64,000 nucleotides of DNA, taken from Laetmonice hystrix. Taxonomy: Eukaryota. The position numbers and the translations under genes are program-made. Shown in pieces: positions 8,038 to 64,000 of this stretch. The notes beneath the pieces were generated by a model. That model was given only the letters and a program-made list of their open reading frames with translations. It was not told where the DNA came from and made no database searches. How positions within the stretch are numbered: the first letter of the stretch is position 1; each line of letters opens with the position of its first letter. The DNA lies in the NCBI GenBank assembly GCA_965235115.1, contig OZ249436.1:9736001-9800000 (forward strand), in the 5' to 3' direction.

Positions 8038-9556
8038 TGGGATGGATTGATAACTGTGGGAGGGTATCTGTGGGATGGATTGATATGTAGGAGGGTATCT
8101 GTGGGATGGATTGATAACTGTGGGAGGGTATCTGTGGGATGGATTGATAACCGTGGGAGGGTATCTGTGGGATGGATTGATAACTGTGGGAGGGTATCTG
8201 TGGGATGGATTGATCTGAGGGACGGTATCTGTGGGATGGATTGATAACTGTGGGAGGGTATCTGTGGGATGGATTGATAACTGTGGGAGGGTATCTGTGG
8301 GATGGATTGATAACTGTGGGAGGGTATCTGTGGGATGGTTTGATAACTGCGGGAGGGTATCTGTGGGATGGATTGATAACTGCGGGAGGGTATCTGTGGG
8401 ATGGATTGATAACTGTGGGAGGGTATCTGTGGGATGGATTGATAACTGTGGGAGGGTATCTGTGGGATGGATTGATAACTGTGGGAGGGTATCTGTGGGA
8501 TGGATTGATAACTGTGGGAGGGTATCTGTGGGATGGATTGATAACTGTGGGAGGGTATCTGTGGGATGGATTGATAACTGTGGGAGGGTATCTGTGGGAT
8601 GGATTGATAACTGTGGGAGGGTATCTGTGGGATGGATTGATAACTGTGGGAGGGTATCTGTGGGATGGATTGATAACTGTGGGAGGGTATCTGTGGGATG
8701 GATTGATAACTGTGGGAGGGTATCTGTGGGATGGATTGATAACTGTGGGAGGGTATCTGTGGGATGGATTGATAACTGTGGGAGGGTGTCTGTGGGATGG
8801 ATTGATAACTGTGGGAGGGTATCTGTGGGATGGATGGAGAACTGTGGAACGGTATCTGTGGGATGGATTGATAACTGTGGGAGGGTATCTGTGGGATGGA
8901 TTGATAACTGTGGGAGGGTATCTGTGGGATGGATTGATAACTGTGGGAGGGTATCTGTGGGATGGATTGATAACTGTGGGAGGGTATCTGTGGGATGGAT
9001 TGATAACTGTGGGAGGGTGTCTGTGGGATGGATTGATAACTGTGGGAGGGTATCTGTGGGATGGATGGAGAACTGTGGAACGGTATCTGTGGGATGGATT
9101 GATAACTGTGGGAGGGTATCTGTGGGATGGATGGATAACTGTGGGAGGGTATCTGTGAGATGGATTGATAACTGTGGGAGGGTATCTGTGGGATGGACTG
9201 ATAACTGTGGGAGGGTATCTGTGGGATGGATTGATAACTGTAGGAGGGTATCTGTGGGATGGATTGATAACTGTGGGAGGGTATCTGTGGGATGGATTGA
9301 TAACTGTGGGAGGGTATCTGTGGGATCGACTGATAACTGTGGGAGGGTATCTGTGGGATGGATTGATAACTGTGGGAGGGTATCTGTGGGATGGATTGAT
9401 CTGTGGGAGGGTATCTGTGGGATGGATGGATGGATAACTGTGGGAGGGTATCTGTGGGATGGATTGATAACTGTGGGAGGGTATCTGTGGGATGGATTGA
9501 TAACTGTGGGTGGGGGGGGGGGTATCTGTAGGATGGATGGATAACTGTGGGAGGGG
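8038..9556. repeat. G-rich 33-bp minisatellite, ~45 copies
   Basis: Unit ggattgataactgtgggagggtatctgtgggat. It explains the repetitive ORFs in several frames. Confidence 0.97.
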
Positions 9557-10484
9557 AGGAGGGAGGTTTAAAAAAAACAAATCTTTATGTACTTCCATGG
9601 GGGGGGGGGGGTTCTTACCTATTTTCCCATATTGCTCTCCAACTGCCCCCCCCCCCCTTGTCCTAAAGTCGAACGCCACCAGAAAATATTGGTTTTAGAC
9701 GTCCACTGGTTTCTTTTCTCCGATTCACCCACACTCCTAATAAAACTTCCTACTCGCAGTTCAAGACTTATATATCACCACTTGATCCCCGGCCCCACGA
9801 TCACAGTACAGGAGTTCTCTGGTAGCCTTCAATGACATGTGACCTCAGATTATCAGTTACATCCTAATTCACCCTCAGCCGCTGCCGACCTCAAAGATAA
9901 CCGCCTGATTGCGGTTCCTTTATCTGACCGTCAAGGCGGTCATATAAAAGTTTTTACCTCTCACATGACTCTGCCGCCTTGATAACTGAGGTCGACTTCA
10001 CCTGTCTTAGATAAACTACCCGGTAGTGTTTTTTTGTGCCACATAAAAGTGATCAGAATAGTTTCACAATAACGATATTTTAAAACAAAACATTGGAGAT
10101 CACACTAATATTAACAATGGGAAACAAAGAACTCCCACTAAGGTATCAGTTCCTCCATGCCTGAATTACGACTCACCTGTCTCACCTGGCAATAATCATG
10201 CAAACGCACTGCGGCAGTCAGGTTTCCTGAGACCAGTGAGCAAGTAAGTACTGGTACCTCTAAGATATCCCAGTTTACATCAATAAGTCGGCATTCTAGA
10301 CAACCTCTTTGCATTGTGTAGCAACATTCTCTACTCCACGGTTCCTGGGAGCGTATCCTCAGCACTATTGTGATCCTGAGGAATGAGGACTGCATCCTCT
10401 CCATACGTCCGGCCACCGGGAGGGGAGGGGGGGGGGGCCTGGCCCACACCTGTTCACATCATCACATTACATGATTGCTTCCTA

Positions 10485-11264
10485 TCCCACTTACCCCACA
10501 CACATACATGTAACATCTGTAGTACACCACCCAGCTCTTTCTCTCCGTGAAATACTAACGTTAGAACAAGATTACATCGGAACTCATACCAACGGTTCCA
10601 TGCCTAATCATGTCCCACTTACCCCACACACATACATGTAACATCTGCAGTACACCACCCAGCTCTTTCTCTCCGTGAAATACTAACGTTAGAACAAGAT
10701 TACATCGGAACTCATACCAACGGTTCCATGCCTAATCATGTCCCACTTACCCCACACACATACATGTAACATCTGTGGTACACCACCCAGCTCTTTCTCT
10801 CCGTGAAATACTAACGTTAGATCAGGATTACATCGGAACTCATACCAACAGTTCCATGCCTAATCATGTCCCACTTACCCCACACACATACATGTAACAT
10901 CTGCAGTACACCACCCAGCTCTTTCTCTCCGTGAACTCTTTCTCTCCGTGAAATACTAACGTTAGAACAAGATTACATCGGAACTCATACCAATAGTTCC
11001 ATGCCTAATCATGTCCCACTTACCCCACACACATACATGTAACATCTGTAGTACACCACCCAGCTCTTTCTCTCCGTGAAATACTAACGTTAGATCAGGA
11101 TTACATCGGAACTCATACCAACGGTTCCATGCCTAATCATGTCCCACTTACCCCACACACATACATGTAACATCTGTGGTACACCACCCAGCTCTTTCTC
11201 TCCGTGAAATACTAACGTTAGATCAGGATTACATTTAACTAAAAGTTCCATGTCTAATCATGTC
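10485..11264. repeat. Tandem repeat, 128-bp unit, ~6 copies
   Basis: tcccacttaccccacacacatacatg... recurs at 10485, 10613, 10741, 10869, ~11013 and ~11141. One unit has a short internal duplication. Confidence 0.95.
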
Positions 11265-11838
11265 GAGCTTGTTACAATTGAACTAAAGTCATTACAGAAG
11301 TATTTTCAACCGGGAAATTGTGGAAAATTAGTTGATACGCTTGAGTACACAAATTAAATACCAACAGGCTGAGCTCAGGCCAAACTACGATGTCTCCAAG
11401 ACAATTATTCTATGACGTCAGATTGTGTGCACAAACCTTTGGTTCCATAATGTGCCCTTACTAAAAACTCTGTGTCCTCGATAATGAGATACCAAGCTGC
11501 CAACAAAACCACTATTCAAGGACCTGGATATTCCCTTATCACAGATCCTCTTGGCTAGTGTTTGACCTAGACTGACTCACCAAATAACCTTGCCACATCC
11601 TGGAGATTCTTACCATATCCCGTCACCAAATTTATTCTTTATACATGCTCCTGGGGTTTTTTTTTATTCTTCTGGTTAGATATGGCAAGCATGGTCGACT
11701 GTTCGAGTAATGAATATCCCAGCTAAATAACTCATCCTGTTTTTGTAATAACTAGTGATCTTCCTATAGTGTTGTGTCAGAGACAGGTATGAAAAGTCCC
11801 GTGGTCGATTACCGTAACTGTCGGTATGCAAGTATATA

Positions 11839-18944: not shown

Positions 18945-21900
18945 CGCCTATATCACAATCAAGGTCAAAAAAACGAATTTATAGTGTTACAAACTAATTT
19001 TGAAATGTTCCCTATACTTTCTGATTAATTTATGTCTCCAATAGATTCATCATTAACAGGGCTTCAAAATAAAAAAAGAATGATGAAAATCGGACCATAA
19101 ATAAAAAAGTTGTAGTATTTAGAACACTAATTATGAGCTTAATTTTCATGTTACGGCGGGGTCAAAAGAAAAATGCACCAAGTTTAAAACCCAGGAAATT
19201 ATATTTCTTGCCCCATATGTATACCTGTAATTGATTAATCTTATTCTAGTTGTGCTTTCTAGTTATTTTTTTAGGAATGTCACATAAAGAAAAAAACTAT
19301 TGTATTGACAAGTGGCCAATGAAGAACAGATGGCCTTTGTTACGAAAATTTACATTTTGAAGCAGATTTATATAAAAAGTGTTCTGGGTATAACATAACT
19401 GAAGATTTTACTTCAATTATACAGTTAAAATATTGTAAAGAAGTCAGGAATATAGCAAAACCTAAGATAATGATATAGTATTGGATTTTGTTCGATATGA
19501 ATATTGCCCGATCAGAGGTAAAATCTTGTCCGAAAAATCTTGTAGTGTACGTACCCCACTCACAGAATATAATATAAACAATGTACAACTGTTATTGACA
19601 TATCACCACATAGGCCTTGGTACTGTCATTACTCCCTTGAATTATTGTTGATGTGATCGCATTATTTGATTCTCAAGCACATGACAAGTGTCTGGGTGTA
19701 GTGTACGTACCCCCTGTAGTGTACGTACCCCCCATTATCATACAAGAAGCCAAACTGATTCTATAAATAAAATACTGGTGCTTATTACAGGGAAAAATGT
19801 TCAAAGGATGATTTACTGTCTAGTTATAACTTCCTAAAAGAAAAGCAGCACACAGTGAGCCTTGATGAATCTGATTTTTAATAATCGTCATCTTTGCTGG
19901 GTGGGGGTACGTACACTACTCGGAGATGCCACTTTTTGGTCCAGAATTTCTTTTTTTAATTGTAAGGAAACATTTCAGGTTTAATTAAGTCTGATCTTTT
20001 TTTATATATATGAGATCCTTTTATTTATTACCTTATATTTAATTAGTCACTTAGCCAATCTCTCATGCAATATTCCCTCCCTGACTCTATTATGCAAACT
20101 ATCTCATCCCATTTGCTACTCAGTCAGCCTACCCGATACAGGACCCTGTCACTGGCAGGCTGCTTAGCTCAGTGCCTTCAGGGTCAGTCTTTCGCCCCAA
20201 CCTTAAAGCATAGAACTGGACAGCAGGGTCAGTCTAGTTCTATACTCAAAGTAATCTTGAAATTGATTATTACTGGTAGCTTGTTGATACTTATTGGCTG
20301 AAATTTGTTCAGCTCTTTCAGCTGGCCAAAGCCCAGGGCAAGGCTTTACAGAGGTGGCAAACAGACTGAAACAGTGCCAGTGGTATTGTTAGTGAAGTCA
20401 CAATAGGGATAGTACAACTGTGTCATCACAATACCATTATGACACTGACAAATTGCACTGACAGATACGTTTTCTATCACACTCTGTCAGACGTTCCTGC
20501 TGTGACTCTAATCCATTTTTTAAACATCGATTATTTGTAGTTTAGCCCAAACCATCACTTTAAGATGGCAATGCTTTTCCTACTCATGGTTACTTCAAAT
20601 CATGTAATTTCAAAAACAATTTAAGGTCAGTGACGTAGGAGGGGGGAGCAGGTGGGTCCACCTTTTAAATGCACCGAAATCACCCCAGAGAAATACCGAA
20701 ATCTAACCTAAATACGGAAATTACATTGAGAAATACCGAAATCCAATCTAAATACCGAAACCACCATTGAGAAATACCGAAATCCAACCTAAATACCGAA
20801 ACCACCGTTGAGAAATACCGAAATCCAATCTAATACTGAAACCGTTGAGAAATACCAAAATCCAACCGAAATACTGAAATCACCATTGAGAAATACCAAA
20901 ATCCAACCTAAATACTGAAACCGTTGAGAAATACCAAAATCCAACCGAAATACTGAAATCACCATTGAGAAATACCAAAATCCAACTTAAATATCGAAAT
21001 CACCCCAGAGAAATACCGAAATCCACTCTAAATACTGAAATCCTCCCCCAGAAATACCAAAATCCAACCAAAATGCCGAAATCACCTTTGAGAAATACCG
21101 AAATCCAACCTAAATACCGAAATCATGAATTTTACCAAGGCACTGACTGTTTGGCAGGCTGTAACTTTTTTTTTAATTTGGCGACCCCCAATTTTTTTTG
21201 TTTTAAACTATTAGTCCTGATCCTCTTTGTCTTGTCAGTGAGTTCCAGGAGAAAATCAGTGGTCGTTTTTTAACTATTTGTCAAAATGTCTGAAAAATCT
21301 CGTTTTTCCCATTGAAACCTATAGTAAAGACCCATTTTTTATGGAGGCCTGTATAAAAAAATCTAATTCGGTGACATGTGATTTTTTTGTTTCTTTGTAC
21401 TTTTAGGGACAAAGGCTATCCCCCATAAAAATATTTTGAAAATTCTAGTGGTCGATTCGAACACTCACATTTCTCTTTAAATAAAGTAATACCAACAATA
21501 CACACTGTAGTGTACGTACCCCCAATAGACTCAATTGTAGTATGAGTAATAGTATTGACTCAAGTTTTCAGTACTAGTACTGACAAGAGATGTAACTTAC
21601 ATTTATGGTTTTCTCTGTATAACACAGGTTTATACTTTGTTTAAATGACATTATTTTATATGTAGACTGAACGTTTCAAGTATTGAGTTGTTTGAAACTA
21701 ATAAATTAGAAACGAGTTCAATGATGCGAATGATGAGAATGATGAGAATATTATCATCTTAAGAACAGCTGTTGTGAATTATGTTTTAAATGGCCTGCAC
21801 ATATTTAAGCACTGTAAATTGAATAACCTCATGCCAAAATTACCAAGGTATCTGCTATATTTTGTTTATATATGGATATTAATGTATATAGATGTAGTGT

Positions 21901-22618: not shown

Positions 22619-23509
22619 TTTCATCTGCAGACACATTTAATAGGAGTTATGGAGAATGTATGAGACAGCGACCACTCTCTGCTTACAGAGAACATCCCAG
22701 CGTACTGGGTTTCAATCGTGGAACCACTATCCCTCAACCAGTACACCTTGCTATCTCTGGAGACCTGACTCAAGAGAAGTACTGCAGCCTCGGGAGGTAG
22801 TCGACTTCCTGTATCTACTCCAGCAGATTCTTTAATGGAAAAAGATATCGTGGTTTATCGTCAGAAAAAATTTCAAGAATCTTCTGGCGCCCTCAGAATG
22901 TATAGCGTCGACCTTGGGCCTTCATGTACCAGTGAGAGCTGGTGATACAACGATCCCAGAAATATACGGGTCTGGTGGCTAATACTTGTGATTGTTATCA
23001 AGAAATGAAGGACCGTGAGCATATTTTGGTGGCACTCGGTGGGTCTCCGTGTGTACCACCGATGTGGGTCGGGTGACGTGCTGTACATGGCCGGCTGGAT
23101 CCTGGGGGACATTGCTTCCTTTCATCGCCCCATCCCGTCACACATCTGGTTGGTGGTGGCGGTCTGAAGTCTCCCATCGCCTCTATGTGGGACAGGATGC
23201 TGAACTCTATCTGTGAGTCTGTACTGCTAAACTTCGTGCTGCTCTACAAACTGGGATGGTCGGTGGCCACTTGTCAGAAGTCATGCCTTCACACCCGTAC
23301 GTCAGGGCGTAGTTTGAATGTTTCCACCTCAACCCGACCCCTTCATCTATCTCAGCGGGAAAGTCCATTGGGAATCCGTAGAATGTTTTCTCATACTGAC
23401 CACGCCCGACCGCCGCCGGTCTGTAGGGCTCATCAATCAGTACCCAATGCCGTTCTCAAGGTGAAATATTCCCTGACTGTACACAGTCAAGATCGCCATA
23501 CATATCTGC

Positions 23510-23857
23510 TTTGTTAAAAATACCTCAAAATTCAAATCGACATGTGTTCCATATACATGGGTTCTACAATATTTTATACCCGTAAAACCCCTTTCAGAAG
23601 GCACAAACATCACTGAGGTTATGGTACAGACATGCAGTTTGATCAAAGACGAGTCGTGTCAATTAAGCCTGTTTGTCCATCCAGGAGGCGGTACTGTGGG
23701 GAACCAAGGGATGCTGTGAAGGCGGTCCCCCTTGGAGAAAGTATAGAACGTTAATCACCTTTACATGTCTGCTTGTTATATCCACGGTAAGTTGAAAAAA
23801 AACATGCCTTTGATCCAATAAAAAGGAAAATGGAAAGTTGCTGAACATTGCACATCT
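23510..23857. repeat. Dispersed repeat copy A (paired with 27272-27604)
   Basis: Long shared blocks such as aatcgacatgtgttccatatacatgggttctac and ggaaagttgctgaacattgcacatct. Confidence 0.85.
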
Positions 23858-25373: not shown

Positions 25374-26399
25374 CTGCAAGTACACACATAAAAAAACCTC
25401 ATTAATATTAAAATATCACTTAGTTGCCAACAGCTATGTAAATATAATGATGAAACATTGGATGTTCAATCACGGATAAACCAACAAAGACATGTACACT
25501 TTTATTTTGCATAAAAAGAGTTAGAAATCCCTAGTATTCTAAAGTTATGCCGTATTTGGTCAAAGTTGGCTACTTCTAATTCTTCCTTCAGTTAAAAATA
25601 GACACCTTCTCTGTTAACCTTCTTGCCAACTCCACAGGTCATCAAAAAAATTCATTTACCGTTACCAATTTTGAATTTAGAGTCGATACATTTACTTTCT
25701 AAGTCAGACTCTTCCTATCCTGACCTTTCTTGCACACTTTGATTCCGGTTACCTAGGATTCCCTGCCATTGTTTGGTTTTCCCACAACATGACCTGTTTA
25801 GTTCGACTGAGCAATTTCCACCGATTCTCCTGAGAACAGTTCAAGCTTTCTTTTATCCAAAAGGATAAAATTTCAACCACCAGTAATATCGGTAGACAAA
25901 CATGTCAGTTTAACATTCTGCAGTTGTCAATCTGGCAGGCTATTGACACAACATGATAGCCTCCAGCAAACAGGCCTGGTTGAACTGACTCCCCCAGACT
26001 CGCTGGGTGCTGCGCCCGTCCCACCAGCTGTAGTCCTCCCTACCACGCTCCCTGTCTGGGGCTGCGTTAGGACCCCAGCCAGACCACCCTAACATCATAT
26101 TGATCCCACTTACTAGTGAGCCTATCCAGCACACGCCGCGTTGTGGACTGCTTGGCACCTCTGCAGGGGTGCTACAGTCAGTCATTCTACAAAGGTGGGC
26201 TTGCCATAGATTAGCCACCATACCCCCACCCCCAATAGTGTCTGGCCAGGCCATTACACCGAGATCAATGCCAGGGAGACTTGACACCGCTCTCACAGTG
26301 ACATCACAACTGGCAGACATCTCCTTCCTGACCTGCACACAAGTACACCTGCTACCGGTAGCACAGTCAGTGACTCACAGCCTCCATCCTCCTCCGGTA

Positions 26400-26990
26400 T
26401 CACAGAAACTCCAGTCCTACCGTGCCGGTACGACTGGGTCACAGCAACTCCAGCCTCCTCCAGTACGACTGGGTCACAGCAACTCCAGTCTTACCATGCC
26501 GGTACGACTGGGTCACAGCATCTCCAGTCTTACCGTGCGGGTACGACTGGGTCACAGCATCTCCAGTCTTACCGTGCGGGTACGACTGGGTCACAGCAAC
26601 TCCAGTCTTACTGTGCGGGTACGACTGGGTCACAGCAACTCCAGTCTTACCGTGCCGGTACGACTGGGTCACAGCAACTCCAGTCTTACCGTGCGGGTAC
26701 GACTGGGTCACAGCAACTCCAGCCTCCTCCAGTACGACTGGGTCACAGCAACTCCAGTCTTACCGTGCCGGTACCACTGGGTCACAGCAACTCCAGTCTG
26801 TGCGGGTACGACTGGGTCACAGCAACTCCAGTCTTACCGTGCCGGTACGACTGGGTCACAGCAACTCCAGTCTTACCGTGCCGGTACGACTGGGTCACAG
26901 CAACTCCAGTCTGTGCGGGTACGACTGGGTCACAGCAACTCCAGTCTTACCGTGCGGGTACGACTGGGTCACAGAAACTCCAGTCCTACC
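26400..26990. repeat. Minisatellite, 39-bp unit with shorter variants, ~16 copies
   Basis: gtacgactgggtcacagcaactccagtcttaccgtgc(c/g)g repeated. Confidence 0.95.
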
Positions 26991-27271
26991 CTGCATACTA
27001 AATATTATATCACACTTAGCAATCCCCAAATTTCACGTTGGACGACTAGGAAAGTGAATGGTGTGTTTTCAAAGAACGGATCTTTGGTTAGATATAGACC
27101 ATTATTCCGATTACAGGAAAATAACGGACCCTAGTCATTGCAGGTAGTACATGTAGTTAGGGAATGTTAACAAGGCTGTCATTACTGGAGATAGTTAAGC
27201 CTGTTATTACCGGTAGTCGGGATTGTAGAGAGATATTCATCCAGCAGGCCTCTAAAACTTTCTAATACTGT

Positions 27272-27604
27272 TTTGTAAAAAATACCTCAAAGTTCAAATC
27301 GACATGTGTTCCATATACATGGGTTCTACAATATTTTATACCCGTAAAACCCCTTTCAGAAGAAAGCCACATGGCACAAACATCACTGAGGTTATGGTAC
27401 AGATATTATATGCAGTTTGTTTGTCCATCCACGAGGCGGTACTGTGGGGGACCAAGGGATGCTGTGAAGGCGGTCCCCCTTGGAGAAAGTATAGAACGTT
27501 AATCACCTTTACATGTCTGCTTGTTATATCCACGTTCTTATTGAAAAAACATTCCTTTGATCCAATAAAAAGGAAAATGGAAAGTTGCTGAACATTGCAC
27601 ATCT
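27272..27604. repeat. Dispersed repeat copy B (same orientation as copy A)
   Basis: Aligns with 23510-23857 with a few indels. The minus-strand end TAGATGTG resembles a hAT-type terminus. Confidence 0.85.
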
Positions 27605-51800: not shown

Positions 51801-53051
51801 TACCTCACTAATAAATGATCAATACGGCAGTCATTGAGTTTTCCTGCAGTCTATGACTCACATCTACGAATACAGGTTTGAAAAACGTAACCCTTCTATA
51901 ATTTGGATCTATGGCACATAGCGGCCACGTTAGCACGTCTGCCACTTGAGTAGCACAGCAAAGGCTGGAGTGGGTAACTGCTGCGGTACCACAGAGGTTT
52001 GGAGCCAGACGTACTGTCAATGGAGCATGCCGGACTGCCTGCTCCAAAAGAGTTCCAAGCATGCAATGAGACTGCCCACTGCATGTGTAGACTATTTCAG
52101 TCACTTACAAACTCCAAATTGGAACGCTATGAGCGAGCTGGCGTCCATCGGGCCTTGACAGGCAGAGCACAGGGTCAGCTTTAAAATACTGAGTGCAGCT
52201 CAATCTGGTCTTGATCACATGACTGCTACAACAAAAGTGAGAGTAGTTTGCGATTCCGATTTACTATTGGTTTGACCTGGTCTTATGGCATATCTCCTGT
52301 AAATGATCATACTCTGGCTAGAAACTCTCAGAAAAGGCAAAAGCACTTAAAGTAAAGTTAGAATTATAAAGAATTCCGAAGTAATTATGAAATAATGTTT
52401 TTTTCCTTTATCATTTTCAGGTAATAACCAGGCCCATTCAAAACCCGATATCTTTTAGCTTAATAATGGAAAGCTGGATCATTTCTCATCACATAGCTCT
52501 GACGTTCTAACAAGTGATTCTTTCCAAGATCCTAAAATAGCGCCACGGAGACGCCTCGACTGAAACAACTTTTATCTGGGCCCTGATTCTGAACGCCATT
52601 ACTCTCCATGATGTGCCTGATTATTTCCTTTAATTAGCAAGGATATCATATTATATTCTTATTCAGGAGACAGTAATTGAGTTTGGGACACGTGCTGGTG
52701 ACGCTCGGTATTTCAGTACCATCGCCGCCATCACTACAGTTATTGCCGCTCTGAAGGCCACACGTGATTTATCATTTACAGTTACTACACGTGGCAACCC
52801 TTGCCAATATATAATATTGTAATCAATCAAATTAACTTTATTCACGTTAACACGAAACAGACTTATTTTTGATGCCACGTGCAGGTAACAGTTGTACTAA
52901 AGTGAAGCTTCTCATGCTGGATGTAGAGAAATCCATGTTGCTCCAGATAAACGCACGTTAGTAACTTACTAATGGCAAGCTCACATGATGGTGCCCCATC
53001 CAGAAATGGCTTTCTACGATATAAAGGTTTAAAAAAAGGTTAGATACTTAC

Positions 53052-56000
53052 TGTCTGTTTGGCATGAGCAACAGCTTCCTCGAGTCCATGAACTTTGCTG
53101 CCCACTATGTACACTCCATGAGACCACACAGAACACTCCTCATGAACCCAGATTTCGGGAGGAAGATCATCGCTCACCGATTCCCAGCGCGGTGATGCCA
53201 GCAAACTGCCCCCTGAATTTTCACGAGATTTCCGCCGTCGCCTGCCCACTGGCGTCTCCTCGACTGACGAGCTGAGTTTTCGTCGTCGGTGCCGTTTTTC
53301 TGAGGACGGTGTGTCTGTCTGTGGTGTTTGATGTGTGGACGTGGAGGGTTGAGGGTCAACTGCTGTACTGGAGGGTTTGGTATTGGAAGGAGAGGGCTGT
53401 ACTGGAGCATAGTTCTCCGGATAGTATGGACCAAACAGGTCTCCCAGAGTCTGGTGGTTGCTGCCCTTGCCACAGAAGGCACACAGCCATGGGACAGAGT
53501 CAGATAGAACAAATGAGGTGGCAGATATTGCGGGGGGCTTCTCTTTGTGTATCTCACCGCCCGCACCACTTTTCTTCTTCTTACTCAATTTTTCACTCTC
53601 CAAATTGTCTAGTGTATTAACCACCTCCAGGGAAGTTGGGTTTTCCTTGGGTCCTGTAAGTCGGACAAATGGTCCCATTATTACCTGAGACCCTTTTTCC
53701 CCTTTCTTTTTCTTACTGCTCAGTTGGCAGGCTTCACCACCTTTTTTTAACATAGCCTTTAACGACTCCTCTTCCTCTTTGTAGTCTATTATCCCTTCCC
53801 CTTGTCCTTTTCGTCGTTTTCGCCGTTTCATTGGTACTTTGTTTTTACTACCAAAAGGGCGACCTCTCTTCTTCTTTCCCGTTGGCGTTGACCCAGGAGT
53901 GAGTTCGCTAGCTGAGCTGGAAGAAGGCACTTGCTGCAGTTGGTTGGTGCCAGACTCGGGTGTAACTTGCTCAGTTTTTACTGGAGGACTCACAGACGTG
54001 GGTGTAGTAACTGTAGTCGGCACTGCTGGCCCTTCTGCAGCTTCCTGTTTCACAGGTGTTTCCTGTTTGACTGTGGATGGCAATGGTACAACAGCAGGAC
54101 TGCGTGATGGTGAGGTGCCCCTCCCCTTGGACAGGCCTGATCGAGGGGAGTGGCCCCCTCGAGTGCCCCTACCCCGTCCACCACGACCTTTACCTAGCCG
54201 TACCGGAGGCCGTACGAGTTCGGCCTTTACAGGAGGAGGAAGCACCAGAAGGTCATCTTCTGGTCTCCTCAACTTGTTCCGTTTTGCCGGCAATATGTAA
54301 TCCTCATCCTCACTGTCATTGGACTCAATTTCGATTGGGATATCTACAAAGTTTGGCATGTGTGTCTGGCGTCGCTTCCGCATGCCCTTTCCCATACCTG
54401 GTCCCCCTTGGACAGGTTCTTCATCACACCGACTCAACTCAGGCTTATCTACGTCATCAAAAGAGGTACAAAGGTTCTTGCGCGACAGCTTTGGGCACTG
54501 TGGCATGGCAGCCTCAGACCGAGGCTTAACGTCACTTGAGCAATCATCAGTACGGCTGTGATTTATGGCTGCTGGTGGACCTGTCTCCCCGACAGCGTTG
54601 TCACGAACAGTTTGCTGAGCACTCTCCTTACTGGGAACGGATAAACACACAGGATTCAGCCTACCCTCTCCTTTCACGGTATCTCGACTCTCAATTTTAC
54701 ACTTGGGTTTGAACTTTGATGGTAACACGTCTTGTACTGGTACATCGTCATGTCTGTCGTTCACTCTCACTTTCAGGTCCATCACTGGCGCAGGACGTGC
54801 CTGGACCTTTTGAACGTTTGTGCTGTTAGTCAGTAGACTACTAGGTTTGACTATTTCTGATGTAGAAGTATTTTGAGTACAATGTGTTGCTGACTTTATG
54901 ACAGTCTTATTTTTTACGACCTCTTCCTTCTTTGGCACCTTAAGACCTTCACTGGACCTTGTTTCACTGCATGAGTTCGTCAAGTCAATGGATTTCATGT
55001 CTTTCGGTGGAGACTGATCCTGCTCACCCTTACCAGCAGTCGTATTCTGCCCAGTACATGGTACAACTCGCAGTGGTGACCTTATTTCAGCAGCTGCAAA
55101 CTTTACCCCTGACTTCAGATTTGAAGCGATCATCTCCAACCTGGATCCCTTACCTTTTGTCTTAACCTTTGTATTTAAACCAAGTGTAGCAACAACATTT
55201 GCCGACTTGTCCACTGAAGCACCAACAACTGAGGAGGTCAATTCCACGACAGGCTTGAGGCTTGTTTGAGCAAGAACAGAGTCCAACTTTCCCCGACTTA
55301 CAGATGATATGCTATGTGGCTTGATATCAGTGACTACATTAATTTTCTTCACCTCAGTTGCAGGCAAAGCATTAGTGTTGCCCTCATCTTTCACTACAGA
55401 CTTGCTATTGGACACAGTGGTACTCCCAATAGGGTTGGCCTTCAGTTCCATGTCGATTGGATTCAGTTTGACTGTACAAGTTGAACTACATACGTCTTTT
55501 TCTAAAGTTTTTAGACTGTCATCTTTCTTGGACCCTGACCTAATTTGAGATTTCACGTCTGGGCAGGATCTGAGCCCAACATTACCATCCTCTATGGTTG
55601 GCTGCGCTGATTTCACCTTGAGTTCTAGTGTCCGTTTAGTAACAGAACTTTTCTCACCTACTAGTGGCTCCTTACACTTTTGAGGTTCCTTACACTTTTC
55701 AGGATTAACCAAGTCTCTGCTGTTTTCTTTTCTTTTCAGATTGGCCTCTGGTTTCTCGAAACTGGACTCTGTTAATTTATCTTTAACATCTCTAATACCG
55801 GGCTTTATAACTGAAACGGGTAAGAGCCCCTTTGAAAGAGGCTTTACTAGCGAAACTTCTTTCTTTTTGGGGGCTGGATTAGTCTTTAATTCTTGTTTTG
55901 TATGTAAAACCTTTTTCCCTACAACAGGCCCATTGCTATGGATTTGTCTTTTTTCCTCAACTCTGTCTGTCTGGGTATTCACAGGGACAACCTCTACATT

Positions 56001-59000
56001 TTCTTTTGCACTCATGATGATCGCATTCTGGTTTTTCAAACTAGATACTTCATTTTTTGGATTCTCCTTGGTCTCTTTTAGATCCTGTTTACTCTCAAGA
56101 ATCATGGAAGGCTTCTTCATCTCCATATCTGACTTGCTGTTTTCTCGATTTCTGTCTTGTCTCACTCTCGTAGGACTTGTTGGAAGCTTTTCACAGGAAT
56201 TCTTTGCGTCAGAATTTTCCAGGGTTTTCTTCTTATCATCTAACTGACCATCTGGAGGTTGAGCACTGTCTTTTGTTCTGTCACACACCTTTAATGTCGT
56301 TTCCTTCGAGTTGACTGCTGGTAATATAGTCTCCACCTTAGAGTTTTTTACAGTTCTTTCGCTACTCTCCTTTGCTTCATCCTTTGTAAACCCTCTTGTA
56401 TTTCTAACAGAGGTGTCCTCAGATTTGTTGCCAGTGGTTTTTAATAGAGGAATAGTTGGAGTTACACGGTCAGCCACACTGACCTCACAAGAGTTTTCTG
56501 GCTTTTGTTCAGATTCATTTTCAACTTGTTTTGTTATTTTACTTTGTTCCTCCTTCGTCTCATCAGCAGATTTCTTGTCTACAAGGGTTTTGTCTGATTT
56601 CTCCAAGCCTTGTGACTGATGAGACTGATCACTGTCTTTTGGACTTTTTTGACAATCTTTCTCTTGCAACTTTTCAGATGACCCTGCATCTGCAACTGCA
56701 GATGAAGTTTTCTTTTTTGTTGGTTTTACAATACTTTTTGGAGATAAAACTTTCTCACACGTTTTAGTATCATTGGCCACTTTAACATTACCATCTACCT
56801 GTTTTTCTACACTTTTGTCAGCCTTTGGCTTTTGAGATTTGTTATCCCTGTTCAAAGGTTTTGGAAATGGTCTAACGACATGCCGTATGGGATTCTTTGA
56901 TTCAGCAGGTTTTTCACAAGATTTTGATTCATGTTTGATAACATCTGCATTTCTTTGTAGGCTCGGAGCGTCAGGCCTATGAACTAAAGGTTTTTCACTT
57001 TCATCTGCTTTTGGCTTGTTGTTTGTTTCAGACTTTTCACTTTCACCACTGAGTTTGTCTTGAGTAACTTCAGGTTTTTCATCAACACTTTTGACGTCAG
57101 GCGTTTTTGCCTTTGAATCAGGGGTTGTTGTGTCTGAAGTTACTTTGTTGGGCTGCTTTCTCTTTTTCCTCACTTTTGACTCTAAACTGACAACTTCCTT
57201 AGTTTCTGAATGGTGATGATTCGAGGAACTCACACCATTCACAACTGGAGTGGCAGACTTTTGGAGATCCTCTGAGGAATGCCGCTTAACTTGAACATTC
57301 TCTGATTTAAGATTTGACCTGCCTAATCTTACATCCTCACGAAGATGTTCCATCTTGACCACAGGATCATTTGTCAATTTTATATCAAATTTATCATTCA
57401 CATTAACTCGGACCATGATGTTATTGTTGCAGTTTTTGGTTTTCACATCAACTTTTGTGCTGGCTTTCCCAGGCGACTTAGGCTCCGGCTTTGCCTTGTC
57501 TCCTGAATCACTTTTGCCCGGACTGCGTGCCGGACTTCTTGCTGGACTGCTGCCCCGTCGCCGCCGCTTTGGTTCGGGTTCATCAGGAACCTCAGCACTT
57601 GTCCGGCCTATGCTCTCTTTGTTTTCGCTTTCCTCTCGAGCTTTGAGCTTTACATTTGCTTTAGATTTAGGCAATTTAGCCTTTGGTGATTCTGATTTTT
57701 GATTGTTTGACCCTGGATTAACCGCCCCCTTTGATGACCTATCATCAACAGTCTTTGATTCAGCACTGGTTTCAGCAACCGGTTTGGCTTTCGTGTCAGC
57801 CTGGTTGCTGGTTAACGGTTCTGTGTCACTACCACAGTGCTTACCATCTTCACAATGCTGGTTGGAACCTTCTGGTTCGGACTTGATGTCAGGGGGCGCT
57901 TCACCGTTTTTTGACGGTTCACCATTTTTAGAATTGGTATCACCTGCACTTGGCAAGCAGGCATCATTAACAACACTTTTAGGATCTATAACTTGACTTT
58001 CGGGTAGCATGACAAGTTTCTGCAGAGACTGAAGTGGATTTGATGAGTGACTATCCCTGTCAGGCTCTGAGCAATGTCGGTGTTGCTGCTGCTGCTGTTG
58101 CTGCTGCTGATGTTGTGATCCAGCCATGCTGTAGGTGCTGCCAGTTGATGTCCCACTATTGTCCATGTACATGGACGAACTCGGAGGTCCTTGGCTGGCC
58201 TGTGACTGCGGGCCTGTGGAGAAACCAGACGGACTGGAGTGACTTGAAGACGAGTTCATATAGTTGTTGCTGGGAGAGAAATGTCCAGAAGGACCTTGAT
58301 TTGTAGGTGAACGCATGGCAGATGCCATACTCGCTGGTGAATGTTGACCTGCCGTGCCCATTGGTGGCAAAGGAGAGGGCGTCGGATGCATATTATGCAT
58401 CGGTGACCTCATGGGGCCTTGGTTACAGTTCATTGGGGATTGCATCGGTTGCATCCCTGGAGACCTCATCCCAGCCAAGCTCGGGGACGCCACAGAGTGT
58501 GCTGCTGGAGATCTCTCTGGTCCCGGTGCTGGACTTCTCATCGGCCCTGGGCTTGTGCTGGGCATGCTTGGGTTGCTGTGAACAGAGGCTGGACTTCTTA
58601 CTTGAAGTGGGCTCAGCGGTGATGCTTGACTCTGAGGAGGCATCTGATTGGTGTTGGGGTACATGAATTGCTGCCCTGGACCCATCTGTCCTTGGCCCAT
58701 AGGACCTTGACCCATTTGATTTTGTGGATGGCCCATCTGACCTTGTGTGTGTCCTGGAGGGTACTGACTGGAGAACTGGCTAGGGTTGTTCGGCATCATG
58801 TGCGATGAATGTTGGGCCATTTGGTTCATCTGGTTTGGTACTTGCTGCTGGTACTTGTTCATGTGGCCCTGCGGTCCAGCCATTCCAACTGGACCATTCG
58901 GGGTGTAGGCACTGGACGCCATCTGAAGGATGTTGTCAGCGACCTGTTGGGGGGTCTGTTGTTGAGACTGCTGCATCTGCTGCGTCCTCATATGATGGTG

Positions 59001-59283
59001 AAGTGCGCTTGGACTTGGGTTAGATTGTGGCGGCATACTGTTGGAATACATGCCACCTCCACCAGGCGGCGCTCCTAGGTTAGCGCTGCTGTAGGGCGGA
59101 TTGGGTTGTCCTGGGAAGCCGCCGGGCCCACCAGGTCCTGGTCCAGGACCATGGCTGTACTGGGGGTGACCATAGTTTGGGTGTGACGGCATTCCCCCTG
59201 GGTGTTGTGGCATTTGCCCTGACTGCGACATGTATGGATTGTTGCCATAGGGGTGCATCTGTTGTTGTTGCTGCTGTTGTTGC

Positions 59284-59321
<38 letters not shown>

Positions 59322-59399
59322 CCACATCTGACCTTGTCCTTGGCCGTAGTATCCTTGACCTTGGTTCTGGTATGGTCCCATTGGAGACATGTTTCCCCC
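53052..59399 (-). CDS. RAI1/TCF20-like: RAI1/TCF20-family transcriptional regulator, giant exon (polyQ and Q/P/M-rich N-terminus, long disordered middle, AT-hook, N-terminal half of ePHD)
   Basis: Open frame of 2116 codons. Acceptor tatttgcag|GGG at 59399, first in-exon ATG at 59390, donor ACA|gtaagt at 53051. AT-hook KKRGRPFGSKNK. ePHD motifs CAFCGK...LGDLFGPYY and EIWVHEECSVWSHGVY..GSKVHGLEEA. Confidence 0.92.
59259..59321 (-). repeat. CAG/CAA trinucleotide repeat encoding 21 Gln
   Basis: 63 nt of mixed CAG/CAA codons inside the giant exon. Confidence 0.9.
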
Positions 59400-60619
59400 C
59401 TGCAAATACACAAATATGACACAAAATAAGAATCACGTATAGCTTTAGGGAGCACTGAAAATTGATCTAGTGAGAATAACAGTCCTAGAACCTCTAAGGC
59501 TCATGCCCATTGAATGCCAAAGATTATTTGCATATTTTTTTATCGATAGCCTTGCAATCACACTTCTTTTCAATCCCTATGAGAGAATCAATACCTTATG
59601 AATATTCAACTCAATTCTTTTAAATTATTTGGTCGGTTACACAAAACCCCATTATGTCATATCCCAGTGGAGCTTGGTGGGAAGAGCGTTGAGAAAGGGC
59701 TCTTTGCCTTTTGTTTAAGCTTCAGACCCAGATATTTTCATTAACATTCCTTTACTCTGATGACAACCAAGGCACGGATAATGGCCTGCTACAGGCATTC
59801 CAAGCATTCAACACAATTGATTAAAAGCGATCATATTAATCAAGCCTTGAGTTTATAGGAATTCTCTGCTCCTGGGGTCTTCAACTTCATGGAAACTGAA
59901 TCCTGATCGAAACCTTTCATGTATTTTAAGCATATTTGAAAAACGACCAAGAGGAACTGCTAGTTGGTATCTTTACACTGGAACCTGTTCACCATCACTT
60001 CTTTTGGGATCGATCACGTCTTACGGCCAAGACTTAATTTATGCATATTGCTTCAGAAATATCCTTCCTGCACTCGACTGCGTGTGGGCGCGTGTCTGTG
60101 TGGATAAATTGCCAATTAGCAAACAAGAATGAGTACGCCTGCTCATGGCAAGCTCATAACTTTTTTTCCTGTCGATAATTAACATGCATGGCACACAGAG
60201 TAATAAGGGAGTCAATGTGGTCAGCACTGGGCCAACCAAAGGGCCGGTGCTGATCCGCCGCCACATTAGGGGCACTAGTAGAGGCTCTGGGGTGCATGGT
60301 AATGGGACCAAATGGGCACTATACCATTACACTGCCCCACTGCCAATCACACACAAACTAACAGGGCCTTCCAACAAACCTGCACAATAGAGTGCTGTAA
60401 TGGATTAAAAGCAGGGCTACACAGTGTCCAAATAATAATGGTGTCGAGCCAGTGGGTGGTGTGTAATCTGTGAGCTGCCTGCTGACAGCAGCTAGCAGGG
60501 TACTTTGATAGTGATGGATTGGTTCAAGGCCCACAATCTGGCCTGCCAGTGAGAACCGACACTGATCAGGTCGACACTCGTCCTACCAGCCGCCGCCGTC
60601 ACCAGCCAACCCGCAATAC

Positions 60620-61355
60620 TATCGTACCCCAAGTTTCACATTGGGCTACTCTTGCCCAAAACAATGGACAGACAACCTATGTCAGAGACAATTCTTATGT
60701 TTAGTTGTAAATTGTATACGTTTGATTTACACCCAGAAAGATTAGATGTTCATTATAGACATTTACCAACCATGTTGTGGTGCATTAAGGATTTAACCAC
60801 CGTTCTCAGATGTTCAGTTTGTATTCATTGTTTGCTACCAGCATCTTAGGTTTACAAACAATGTAATCTCTTGGGTGACATATGTTCTCCATTGATGGTT
60901 TTCCCCAGCTTTCGTTTGGGAGGTTGTTTTATTAATGAAGGCAGTACAGTCATAGGGGCAGAGTCGCTCATCACAGGGAACCCGTAATACAGGTGTTTTC
61001 TCACCTATTGTTTCCCACCTCTGTGAAGCAGCTCACTAGTGCCAGGATGTCGGCCTCAGTAATCACTGCTCATTAGACTCTCTGCCAGTGCCAACTTACT
61101 TGTCTTTAACAACAATATACAATCCCCAAAGTGGCCTGCCCTGTGATGGTTTAGCCAATCGGGAGCCAGCATTTTTAGGTTGTATATCATTGGTCAGTTT
61201 GACAATGGTTTTCTCTATATATACTCATGTTATAACTTTGTACAAAAACTTGGAAAGTGAACTGGAATAAACTTCATAATAGTTGACCAGCTCAACCTCG
61301 TCCTTCTGCTGTACACGCAGTCTTCTGGAATGTCGTAGGAACCCTCCGTACGATA
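60620..61355 (+). repeat. 5' LTR (736 bp)
   Basis: Near-identical to 62740-63474. Contains CCAAT (61155), TATATATA (61216) and AATAAA (61266). Confidence 0.93.
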
Positions 61356-61449
61356 ATTGGTGGAGAACCCGGGTGGTTAGCTCTTTTTAGCTGCTAACAG
61401 TCCCTATATGTATTAGCTCCCAGAAGACACAGCCTGCCTGAAGACAACC

Positions 61450-62589
61450 ATGGACGGATTTCTCCCACAACCTGTTCTGGCATTTTTACATGATGCCAAG
61501 AATCTTGGAGTGTCGCTAAGCTGGTCCATCTCCAGCTCACAGGATAAGAAGTCCATAGTTCTGGAGTGGAATACCCATCCAGATACAGATAAGTCCATTT
61601 GTGTGTCATCGACCTCTGGTCACAAATCTCCAAGCAGACGTCGCCGTGATGCTCAGAGATATCAGGCCTGGACCAAGAAGAAGCAGGAGACCAGCCAGTC
61701 AGCACCCAGTAGCCGAGAGGAGAAGAACAAGGGACCAAACAAGGCAGTCCACATTCCTGAGGGAACCAAGTCGACAGTTGCACGGTCAAAACGTCACCAG
61801 AGAAAACCTGGACGAACGTCAACAGCAGGACTCATCCCATACCACCAGGAACATCGCCTCCCTCCTCCAGTGAGTGCCGTTTCGCTCGACCATGGACCAT
61901 CCAGGTCAAACGCATCAACCCAAACAGACAGGCCAGTGACCATCTCTCGTGAGCTGCAAACTGCCCCTCCCACTGTCCAGTCTAAAGGTGTGCAAGCATT
62001 TTGCTCTGTGCCATCCGACACCAAGAGTTGTCAGAGTGAGGCAGTGAGCAGATCTGACTCTGCTACTCAGACTTGGACAATCAGGGGTGACCAGAGTACC
62101 CAGACTGTGGGAAATGGCCCCCAGAAGACAAAGCAATTGTTGGATCCCATGTGTCTAGGATCTAGTGAGCTGGAGTTCCCAGATCAACACTTCCTTGATT
62201 CCCTGGTCAGAAATAGAAGTGATCCACGGTCACTTCCCATACTGCATCCAGCTGGACAGAGAAGTATACCCGTGTGTGATAAGAGCCTCACAAGGAAATT
62301 GTCTTATAGACAAGAGATCTATGAGAGCCATGTGTTACTCTCTGAACCCATTGATTACGATATCACACATATCAGAGAATGTTTTGGATTTCTTGAACGT
62401 GACGAGGCATTTTATCTTCTCACAAAGTATAGAGGGCTGCATTACCTTATACCAGATGAAGGACGTTACTCAGACTTTGAACAGTTGGACCGTGCTGGAT
62501 CACTCTGTGTGACACTTTTAATTTATGATTATAGAAGACGGAGGTATATCCAACCAGAACCTCGATATAATAACCTTGTTCAAGTTTAA
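61450..62589 (+). CDS. 379-aa protein of unknown function carried by the LTR element
   Basis: Intact ORF filling most of the 1384-bp internal region, with a good Kozak context (aaccATGG). No recognisable RT, integrase, protease or CCHC knuckle motif. Confidence 0.8.
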   Translation: MDGFLPQPVLAFLHDAKNLGVSLSWSISSSQDKKSIVLEWNTHPDTDKSICVSSTSGHKSPSRRRRDAQRYQAWTKKKQETSQSAPSSREEKNKGPNKAVHIPEGTKSTVARSKRHQRKPGRTSTAGLIPYHQEHRLPPPVSAVSLDHGPSRSNASTQTDRPVTISRELQTAPPTVQSKGVQAFCSVPSDTKSCQSEAVSRSDSATQTWTIRGDQSTQTVGNGPQKTKQLLDPMCLGSSELEFPDQHFLDSLVRNRSDPRSLPILHPAGQRSIPVCDKSLTRKLSYRQEIYESHVLLSEPIDYDITHIRECFGFLERDEAFYLLTKYRGLHYLIPDEGRYSDFEQLDRAGSLCVTLLIYDYRRRRYIQPEPRYNNLVQV

Positions 62590-62739
62590 CATGACTGTCA
62601 GGAGAGGACAATCACATCTGTATCCTGACATTTGGTATTTTTCATAGCAGATATCTTCTACATGATATCCAGTCATGAACAATCATTTTTATTTTTCTTT
62701 GAGATTGGATGCTCCAATCTCAGTTGAGCGAGGGGGATA

Positions 62740-63474
62740 TATCGTACCCCAAGTTTCACATTGGGCTACTCTTGCCCAAAACAATGGACAGACAACCTAT
62801 GTCAGAGACAATTCTTATGTTTAGTTGTAAATTGTATACGTTTGATTTACACCCAGAAAGATTAGATGTTCATTATAGACATTTACCAACCATGTTGTGG
62901 TGCATTAAGGATTTAACCACCGTTCTCAGATGTTCAGTTTGTATTCATTGTTTGCTACCAGCATCTTAGGTTTACAAACAATGTAATCTCTTGGGTGACA
63001 TATGTTCTCCATTGATGGTTTTCCCCAGCTTTCGTTTGGGAGGTTGTTTTATTAATGAAGGCAGTACAGTCATAGGGGCAGAGTCGCTCATCACAGGGAA
63101 CCCGTAATACAGGTGTTTTCTCACCTATTGTTTCCCACCTCTGTGAAGCAGCTCACTAGTGCCAGGATGTCGGCCTCAGTAATCACTGCTCATTAGACTC
63201 TCTGCCAGTGCCAACTTACTTGTCTTTAACAACAATATACAATCCCCAAAGTGGCCTGCCCTGTGATGGTTTAGCCAATCGGGAGCCAGCATTTTTAGGT
63301 TGTATATCATTGGTCAGTTTGACAATGGTTTTCTCTATATATACTCATGTTATAACTTTGTACAAAAACTTGGAAAGTGAACTGGAATAAACTTCATATA
63401 GTTGACCAGCTCAACCTCGTCCTTCTGCTGTACACGCAGTCTTCTGGAATGTCGTAGGAACCTTCCGTACGATA
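62740..63474 (+). repeat. 3' LTR (735 bp)
   Basis: By eye it differs from the 5' LTR by one 1-nt indel (cataatag vs catatag) and one substitution (accctcc vs accttcc). Confidence 0.93.
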
Positions 63475-64000
63475 ATACCACCAGTACATCCACCACCACT
63501 CCGGGTCCACGGAGAAACCCGAGAGAAACTGCTCATTAACCTCACCCCTCTCCTTTTTCTAAATCTACAGACTTTAGATGCTGGGGCAGATATGTCGTAG
63601 ACTGGTAGTGTCTATTTCATGAGGTCCACTTTTTTAAGGAACAGAGAAGCGTCGCAATGCAGCAACTAATTTTGATGCATGTGCATAATATCACACCTCA
63701 CCCCGTCTGGTCACACTAACAATCTTTTATTCCACTTAATTAATTGTGTCTGACTGAGTGGCTACATAAAATTATGTCTCAGAAATTAGTTGCAACCACT
63801 GGAGAGAGACCGAGGGGAGAACCAGTAAATTAACAAAACTGAGATTCACCGGTTCACTTACGCCAATGATACGTAGTCAAATGTAGGCTAGGAAATGCGC
63901 TGTCACAATAATATATAAGCTCTAGCATGTCAACAGCCATCTTCGGTTAACTAGGACGACTACATCATTTCAGATACTGCATTTCAGATTTCAGCCGCAA

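Follow-up and report, generated by a model that had tools for sequence, protein, structure and literature searches.

A non-autonomous LTR retroelement of Laetmonice hystrix with a sole gene unrelated to gag, and its likely gypsy-type helper

Several kinds of non-autonomous long terminal repeat (LTR) retroelement have been described, and they differ in what lies between the LTRs. TR-GAG elements are short and active, have one open reading frame (ORF) between the primer-binding site (PBS) and the polypurine tract (PPT), and are mobilized in trans (PMC4350172). The same layout and trans-mobilization are reported for Bhikhari (Bik-1/Bik-2) of zebrafish and ENS-1/ERNI of chicken, whose once-unknown ORFs proved by structure prediction to be Gag (PMC12067270). 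TRIM, LARD, and their kin have LTRs, a PBS, a PPT, and target-site duplications (TSDs), share LTRs with an autonomous partner, and are reshuffled (PMC13570524); MaLR elements likewise share LTRs with the autonomous MERVL that they use (PMC5131818). These last groups are non-coding or hold gag/pol remnants. Here, we describe an LTR element at positions 60620–63474 of a 64,000-nt stretch of Laetmonice hystrix DNA (GenBank assembly GCA_965235115.1, contig OZ249436.1, positions 9,736,001 to 9,800,000 of the forward strand), referred to as the window, whose positions are used throughout (plus strand unless stated). The element would work as TR-GAG, Bhikhari, and MaLR do, yet its single ORF, unlike that of TR-GAG, Bhikhari, and ERNI, is not Gag: neither profile comparison nor predicted fold relates the two. 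Nor is the interior non-coding, as in TRIM and LARD; it contains a foreign ORF under purifying selection across subtypes that differ by a synonymous divergence (dS) of >1.

A non-retroviral gene between LTRs and the need for a helper also characterize defective retroviruses that transduce oncogenes. LTR-mediated retrocopies share both traits (PMC5131818). The family described here differs from both: we could find no parent gene, and instead of one capture there is an old, diversified family of many copies. The extra ORFs of the plant element Retand (PMC11963269) and the ORFs of non-autonomous Athila (PMC2410132) are also under selection and subject to inter-family recombination, but they lie beside gag/pol and are often antisense, whereas here the accessory gene is the sole gene. 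A non-Gag protein as the sole, selected gene of a non-autonomous LTR element departs from the non-coding and gag-only kinds described, and literature searches, the one basis for calling the family undescribed, returned no account of it. Our reading, which we consider probable, is that the window element is a young, polymorphic insertion from a multi-copy family of satellite LTR retroelements. With no gag, pol, or env of its own, the satellite likely relies on an env-bearing gypsy helper for packaging, reverse transcription, and integration, and it keeps a selected gene for a predicted LC8-dimerized adaptor whose ubiquitin-like end is exchangeable. Satellite, helper, and chimeras are all young in one genome, while partners are usually hard to trace; a similar autonomous element is known for 30 of 115 non-autonomous families (PMC13570524). 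The system offers a test case of how a retrotransposon parasite pays for its own gene.

A multi-copy family with one gene

The two LTRs of the window copy (60620–61355, 736 bp, with ends TATCGTAC...GTACGATA; and 62740–63474, 735 bp) differ at only two points, a 1-bp indel and a substitution. Their termini read TAT...ATA, with an 8-bp inverted repeat, instead of TG...CA. An exact 4-bp TSD, ATAC, flanks the element (60616–60619 and 63475–63478); the PBS (61358–61375) begins 2 nt past the end of the 5′ LTR, and the purine tract (62726–62739) abuts the 3′ LTR. The 1384-bp interior has one intact ORF of 379 aa (61450–62589), the longest ORF in the other five frames being ≤145 aa. This structure agrees with the initial annotation, which had proposed LTRs of ~735 bp with about two changes, the same TSD, PBS, and PPT, and a 1.38-kb interior. 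That annotation had also claimed recent activity, which is supported by an empty allele at the insertion site and by LTR pairs that are identical at many other loci. Contigs of DNA runs X1–X3 join 60614 to 63474, skipping 2859 bp, i.e., the element plus one TSD, at the same depth as the flanks; these runs are one sample from one study, possibly the source of the assembly itself. In run X4, there is coverage over the element only, and low-depth DNA would look alike. No run of RNA data was among those matched by the element.

A search of the 627-Mb host genome gave 64 matches to the ORF protein, collapsed by hand to 58 places, so the concern that the window copy might stand alone falls away. We examined 55 of these loci, setting aside one that is truncated and two that are partial duplicates. 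The ORF is full-length (363–380 aa) in 51/55 loci and broken in four; among the 51 are an array of three tandem units and, probably, a few segmental duplicates. The 47 distinct proteins of the family are 35–100% identical. Three LTR subtypes occur: A (~736 bp), B (~623 bp), and C (~610 bp). LTR pairs are ≥99% identical in 37 of 45 cases and 100% identical in 19. An exact 4-bp TSD was found automatically at 39/55 loci, in 38 distinct flank contexts and with a G-N-N-C bias; the remaining 16 loci are tandem, truncated, or beyond the reach of the script. Because so many loci have an exact TSD, and in distinct contexts, we regard this as a real mobile family and not a chance arrangement. Solo LTRs are frequent, with matching TSDs at 7/8 unpaired A LTRs and 11/17 unpaired B LTRs. 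The family has paired LTRs, PBS, PPT, and TSD, no polymerase machinery, and dispersed unit copies, as a non-autonomous LTR retrotransposon should.

Some loci are rearranged. At L095 (G000:C21:17.97 Mb), a satellite tandem array has three identical interiors, four shared LTRs, and one TSD, and L096 and L097 (C29) are partially duplicated satellite arrays. A 179-bp unit is duplicated in tandem inside the LTR of L071, and the LTRs of L113/L114 contain ~60-bp tandem repeats that include the PBS.

We found none of the motifs CCHC, YxDD, and D[ST]G in the ORF, nor any stretch resembling a transmembrane segment, and it matches no Pfam family at E≤10, in line with the initial claim that it lacks enzyme and CCHC motifs. 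Pfam searches with 42 family members returned two families at E 0.17–0.24, which we took as noise; the same applies to immunoglobulin matches at E≥0.03 in a second PDB profile search, whose profile was filled by full-length rows. The PDB sequence profile gave nothing for A1. There was no usable match in the ESM Atlas to the ORF or to the N-terminal domain of a Mytilus homolog (see below), and no match in BFVD at E≤0.001. HHalign gave a probability of 0.2% against seven gag frames of the host genome and 0.1% against the env of the helper. No capsid or env structure appeared in fold searches, in which the C-terminal domain filled the lists and the N-terminal domain was not searched alone. Because of the HHalign value against gags, the lack of a helical capsid domain in the model, and the absence of CCHC, we conclude that the ORF is not Gag; nor is it Pol or Env. 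The possibility raised at the outset, that of a divergent Gag capsid or Env fragment, fails on the same profile values and on a model in which a helical capsid domain finds no place. The satellite is also distinct from an internal deletion of the helper, since its interior has no homology to helper gag, pol, or env; from gag-only elements such as TR-GAG and Bhikhari, since its single ORF is not Gag; and from the non-coding TRIM and LARD, since its interior holds a selected ORF.

Likely helper, primer, and chimeric insertions

The element was initially claimed to borrow the machinery of a Gypsy-type helper. For subtype A, there is an autonomous partner with shared cis signals (U3, PPT, and primer): an 11.6-kb element (L142/L143, G000:C10:9632723-9644325, minus strand) with identical 1047-bp LTRs and a 4-bp TSD. 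It has a gag of 474 codons, an in-frame stop, a pol with reverse transcriptase, RNase H, and integrase, and a third ORF of 843 aa that matches Baculo_F (E=1e-12). The gag frame has capsid-like and Cys/His motifs and aligns with Pfam-positive gags, itself having no Pfam match. Judged by genes alone, i.e., a gypsy gag-pol and an F-type env, the element is an errantivirus; metazoan errantiviruses, which are env-bearing Ty3/gypsy elements, likewise have gag, pol (protease, reverse transcriptase, RNase H, and integrase), and F-type env (PMC13524379). The main text of that report does not use the term “non-autonomous,” and its supplementary table may list the helper. A second helper copy (L158) is internally deleted, and a more distant relative lies on C30.

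DNA similarity between helper and satellite is confined to U3, the PBS, and ~50 nt before the 3′ LTR. Bases 1–623 of the helper LTR are 92% identical to LTR-A, the PPT is near-identical, and it is closely preceded by a perfect hairpin (62699–62723) that the satellite shares with the helper and with a sister family of gypsy elements. As a fold, the hairpin is weak taken alone (z = −1.9), and its sharing with the helper is the evidence; folding of the leader RNA is unexceptional (z 0.9 and −0.3). Identity between the LTRs ends ~25 nt past a TATA-like box, with no helper match beyond base 623, and we therefore infer that the satellite combines the helper's U3 with its own R-U5. In the window copy, the U3-like part would be 60620–61242 (TATA-like box at 61216), and the R-U5-like part, which is peculiar to the satellite, would be 61243–61355 (AATAAA at 61266). 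The R-U5-like part is related between subtypes A and B.

Chimeric insertions join the two elements. The 5′ LTRs of L064 and L054 are 99.3% and 94.9% identical, respectively, to the helper LTR over 1047 bp, and are followed by a satellite interior and a satellite 3′ LTR, with matching TSDs flanking the whole. L064 has a doubled PBS, the first copy of which is a perfect tRNA complement, unlike the helper's genomic PBS. In L098/L099, a satellite LTR and PBS are fused to bases 628–1047 of the helper LTR. Intermolecular strand transfer between co-packaged RNAs joins the R/U5 of one RNA to the U3 of the other (PMC6894440), and co-packaging is the likely cause of the satellite-helper chimeras, with gene conversion as the alternative. 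The chimeras and the shared LTR and PPT support the claim of borrowing. Judging from these sequences, the 11.6-kb element is likely the helper of subtype A and presumably mobilizes it.

L098, L099, L100, and L101 all have an LTR and PBS followed by an inverted LTR piece, helper-derived in L098/L099 and subtype B-derived in L100/L101. Such structures may originate from strong-stop DNAs annealed head to head, the PBS end being self-complementary. Two other helper candidates were set aside: the L106-L111 family matches in primer and TSD length but has no LTR or PPT similarity and was demoted; the L113/L144 family has only the hairpin, PBS, and LTR start in common and may serve as a secondary helper.

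The PBS is complementary to the 3′-terminal 18 nt of host tRNA-Ala, matching at 18/18 nt in 35/55 family loci and at 17/18 in the window copy. A CCCGGG after the PBS, considered as a separate dimerization signal, was dropped, as it belongs to the tRNA-Ala complement. The tRNA-Ala motif has 60 genomic matches, with tRNA-Ala genes at 3/3 loci scanned, and PBS-type matches number 195 genome-wide. Dense tRNA-Ala gene arrays at G000:C6:11.20-11.24 Mb and C20:0.35 Mb are a primer source. The young gypsy families L106-L111, L128, L136, and L144-L156 have the tRNA-Ala primer in common. They also split gag from pol with one in-frame stop codon, TGA or TAG, an arrangement that suggests readthrough, and a long third ORF is present in some of them and deleted in others. 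L115, L116, L125, and L126 have the identical 18-nt PBS, unrelated LTRs, and no long ORF beside the PBS; they are possibly further, non-coding satellites.

Predicted protein and its evolution

AlphaFold2 predicts two domains and a disordered linker. The N-terminal domain (aa 1–81; 61450–61692) consists of a helix, a beta-hairpin, and a basic helix with a KSP..RRRD..R pattern (predicted local distance difference test [pLDDT] ~65), and is the most conserved part of the ORF. Disorder is predicted over aa 82–237; the stretch from aa 59 to 120 has 19 K/R versus 5 D/E, and aa 150–222 (61897–62115) contain six TQT-type motifs in series (anchors Q158, 170, 182, 195, 207, and 218). The C-terminal domain (aa 238–375; 62161–62574) is folded, with a predicted ubiquitin-like beta-grasp at aa 276–365.

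TQT is the LC8 anchor (PMC7919418). The six Q-anchored motifs are spaced 11–13 aa apart and are retained even in subtype C, which is 35% identical. TQT is enriched relative to shuffles in 7/8 representatives (p≤0.016), and the anchor Q is 88–100% conserved, compared with 59% for other linker columns. The linker thus has the disorder and the TQT motifs of a multivalent LC8 client. A modeled complex with the host's own LC8 scored 0.61, the best of three controls scoring 0.21, with residues 150–161 in the groove. The mark applied is reached by 51/78 solved versus 2/108 mismatched microbial pairs (39/65 versus 2/126 for eukaryotes) and is uncalibrated for disordered chains; the partner pLDDT was 39–41, and ≥50% of contacts are common to the runs. 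The pass may stem from likeness to the textbook LC8-TQT pair. The linker is predicted to bind LC8 at up to six sites, which would make the protein a candidate transposon-encoded LC8 client and possibly a counter-silencing factor. In Panoramix, a client of LC8 (Cut up) in the SFiNX complex, tandem TQT motifs likewise lie in a disordered chain, where LC8 dimers bind them (PMC7919418). Panoramix, however, acts as a silencer for the host and has two such sites, whereas the satellite protein is element-encoded, has six predicted sites, and has no homology to Panoramix that we found.

Modeled alone, the C-terminal domain has a pLDDT of 82 and a predicted template modeling score (pTM) of 0.78. Foldseek and VIA lists are almost exclusively ubiquitin-like beta-grasp folds, including SUMO, UBL, UBX, Ras-binding, and RAWUL domains. 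The top VIA rows, all ubiquitin-like domains or fusions, are tied at Z 6.5–8.3 (for SUMO1, Z 7.6, root-mean-square deviation [rmsd] 1.8, and 73 aligned residues), and Z 7–8 is the tool's common range, so that no ubiquitin-like subclass can be named, which counts against any finer reading. As a model-based assignment, the ubiquitin-like beta-grasp fold class is well supported. The C-terminus has no di-glycine, and this would be an integral domain rather than a ubiquitin-like modifier.

The ratio of non-synonymous to synonymous divergence (dN/dS) between subtypes is 0.13–0.21 for aa 1–76, 0.33–0.47 for the whole ORF, and 0.56–0.76 for the C-terminal domain; synonymous sites are near saturation, and the estimates do not model recombination. 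Fisher tests support constraint on the N-terminal domain in 5/5 pairs (p 2e-13 to 3e-4) and on the TQT region in 3/5 pairs (p<0.01). For the ubiquitin-like domain, the fold is kept and constraint is weak; subtype B variants of the C-terminal domain comprise 32 non-synonymous versus 4 synonymous changes (one-sided p=0.046, weak). In simulated neutral drift, 2% of frames remain open at 0.1 substitutions/site and 0/2000 at 0.25. With the ORF whole in nearly all loci and the whole-ORF ratio well below 1, the alternative of a decaying ORF does not hold.

The family ORFs are mosaics, and their modules recombine freely. Four-gamete incompatibility is 0.05 at <60 nt, compared with 0.33 when permuted (0/1000). 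Identity to the window copy drops from 99–100% to ~40–50% inside one ORF, and two types of C-terminal half, ~40–45% alike in DNA, occur under helper-type LTRs that are 96–97% alike.

ENA assemblies contain nine full or partial homologs that are 38–54% identical, with as many as 27 members to a cluster, and a profile run against 1.84 billion proteins returned 16 matches. Seven distant proteins carry the N-terminal domain with its KSP..RRRD..R helix; in five of these, there are several Q-anchored motifs of a similar kind, and the C-termini differ from protein to protein. Two named distant homologs, from Mytilus, have no TQT-type motifs and are annotated as uncharacterized. The homolog P0067 combines the N-terminal domain and TQT motifs with a weak chromodomain match (E=0.001, short of the cut-off). 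No distant homolog turned up in the viral, metagenome, or prokaryote contigs scanned.

Possible roles of the protein, and the surroundings of the window copy

The satellite-helper system could work as follows. The shared U3 would cause the satellite to be transcribed in the same cells as the helper, and satellite RNA would enter helper particles, with the chimeric insertions as a trace. Priming by tRNA-Ala and at the PPT, followed by integration, would give the 4-bp duplications with their G-N-N-C bias. Template switching would shuffle the ORF modules and is probably also the source of the helper U3. Up to six LC8 dimers are predicted to zip the protein into a parallel dimer that joins the basic N-terminal domain to a fast-evolving, partner-binding domain.

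The following observations weigh against this account: (i) the helper's genomic PBS matches the tRNA less well than the satellite's, and our searches turned up no helper for subtype B or C, all 17 motif matches being satellites, 20 other autonomous loci giving no match to these subtypes, and none of 17 unpaired LTRs being followed by a PBS; (ii) the TQT pattern was picked post hoc, and the subtype with the alternative C-terminal half keeps one strict TQT; (iii) the ubiquitin-like part is indistinguishable from neutral in 5/5 pairwise tests (p 0.053–1), and its dN/dS is 1.1–1.4 among young LTR-A copies, with few changes.

As to function, our tentative first choice is a nuclear factor that would shield expression of the element from host chromatin silencing. 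More speculatively, the family might represent a class of marine-invertebrate satellite retroviruses, i.e., gene-bearing hitch-hikers on errantiviruses that take the helper's promoter and PPT by template switching; as part of the same doubtful picture, they might travel between cells in enveloped particles and carry a modular counter-defense protein, built from a conserved N-terminal domain, an LC8 zipper, and an exchangeable effector of the chromatin or ubiquitin-like type, whose design mirrors that of the host's LC8-dimerized piRNA silencing complex.

Anti-silencing is only narrowly ahead of a role in RNA delivery, which we regard as possible. With the same satellite and helper, the protein would be a cis-acting adaptor that steers satellite RNA into helper particles: the N-terminal domain would sit on its own nascent mRNA, LC8 would dimerize the protein or link it to dynein, and the C-terminal domain would dock helper Gag or a host factor. 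A trans-acting protein is open to non-coding cheaters, and these are few here; this favors a cis role over anti-silencing, since retention of the ORF in nearly all loci with few non-coding derivatives is what cis preference predicts. The basic stretch at aa 59–120 would suit RNA delivery, and a C-terminal domain that is exchanged and fast-evolving (the 32:4 ratio in subtype B) would suit docking, but two types of this domain occur under the same helper-type LTR, with no one-to-one link to the helper. LC8 clients are often dimerized without being dynein cargo (PMC7919418), and the chromodomain-like end of a distant homolog hints at chromatin.

An unlikely alternative is an interference or host-manipulation factor, i.e., an LC8 sponge or a decoy of the ubiquitin, SUMO, or p97 type that dampens helper or host. 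The six predicted LC8 sites per chain would fit a sponge. The ASPL extended UBX is the best Foldseek match of the full-length model (E=5e-4), and UBXD1 is tied first in VIA (Z 8.3, rmsd 3.2, 108 aligned), along with rows for the PI3K Ras-binding domain and SUMO, but this lead is not robust: the C-terminal domain alone puts ASPL at rank 25 (E=0.012, rmsd 14), and the additional residues that align come from a part of the model with low confidence.

Less probable still is a captured host gene (an LTR-mediated retrocopy) or a leftover accessory gene, kept open mainly because translation stabilizes the RNA. LTR-mediated retrocopies are common in animals (PMC5131818), related N-terminal domains are found in the uncharacterized Mytilus proteins, and the C-terminal domain is near neutral. 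However, all 58 strong matches to the N-terminal domain in the host genome are family loci, two weak extra ones are decayed element fragments, and six-frame genome searches gave no host parent gene, although short, intron-split exons could escape detection. Searching 18 autonomous-element loci in six frames with the family profile gave no match at E<1, and amino-acid constraint on the N-terminal domain and Q anchors exceeds mere upkeep of the frame. Finally, an extremely diverged Gag, as in Bhikhari and ERNI (PMC12067270), for which the position of the ORF directly after the PBS might speak, is very improbable and largely refuted already by the HHalign result, the lack of a zinc knuckle, and an architecture of an 81-aa helix-hairpin-helix, a 155-aa disordered linker, and a beta-grasp.

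The window copy lies antisense to, and 1.2 kb upstream of, a 2116-aa open exon (53040–59390, minus strand) that has a splice-acceptor-like sequence right before its ATG, and the insertion is likely intronic. The exon has no match in Pfam or PDB; its C-terminal Cys/His motifs are reminiscent of RAI1/TCF20. Elsewhere in the window, there are minisatellite arrays with units of 33, 128, 41, and 39 bp (8050–9300, 10407–11362, 20685–21154, and 26342–27023, respectively) and a dispersed repeat pair (23506–23857 and 27268–27604).

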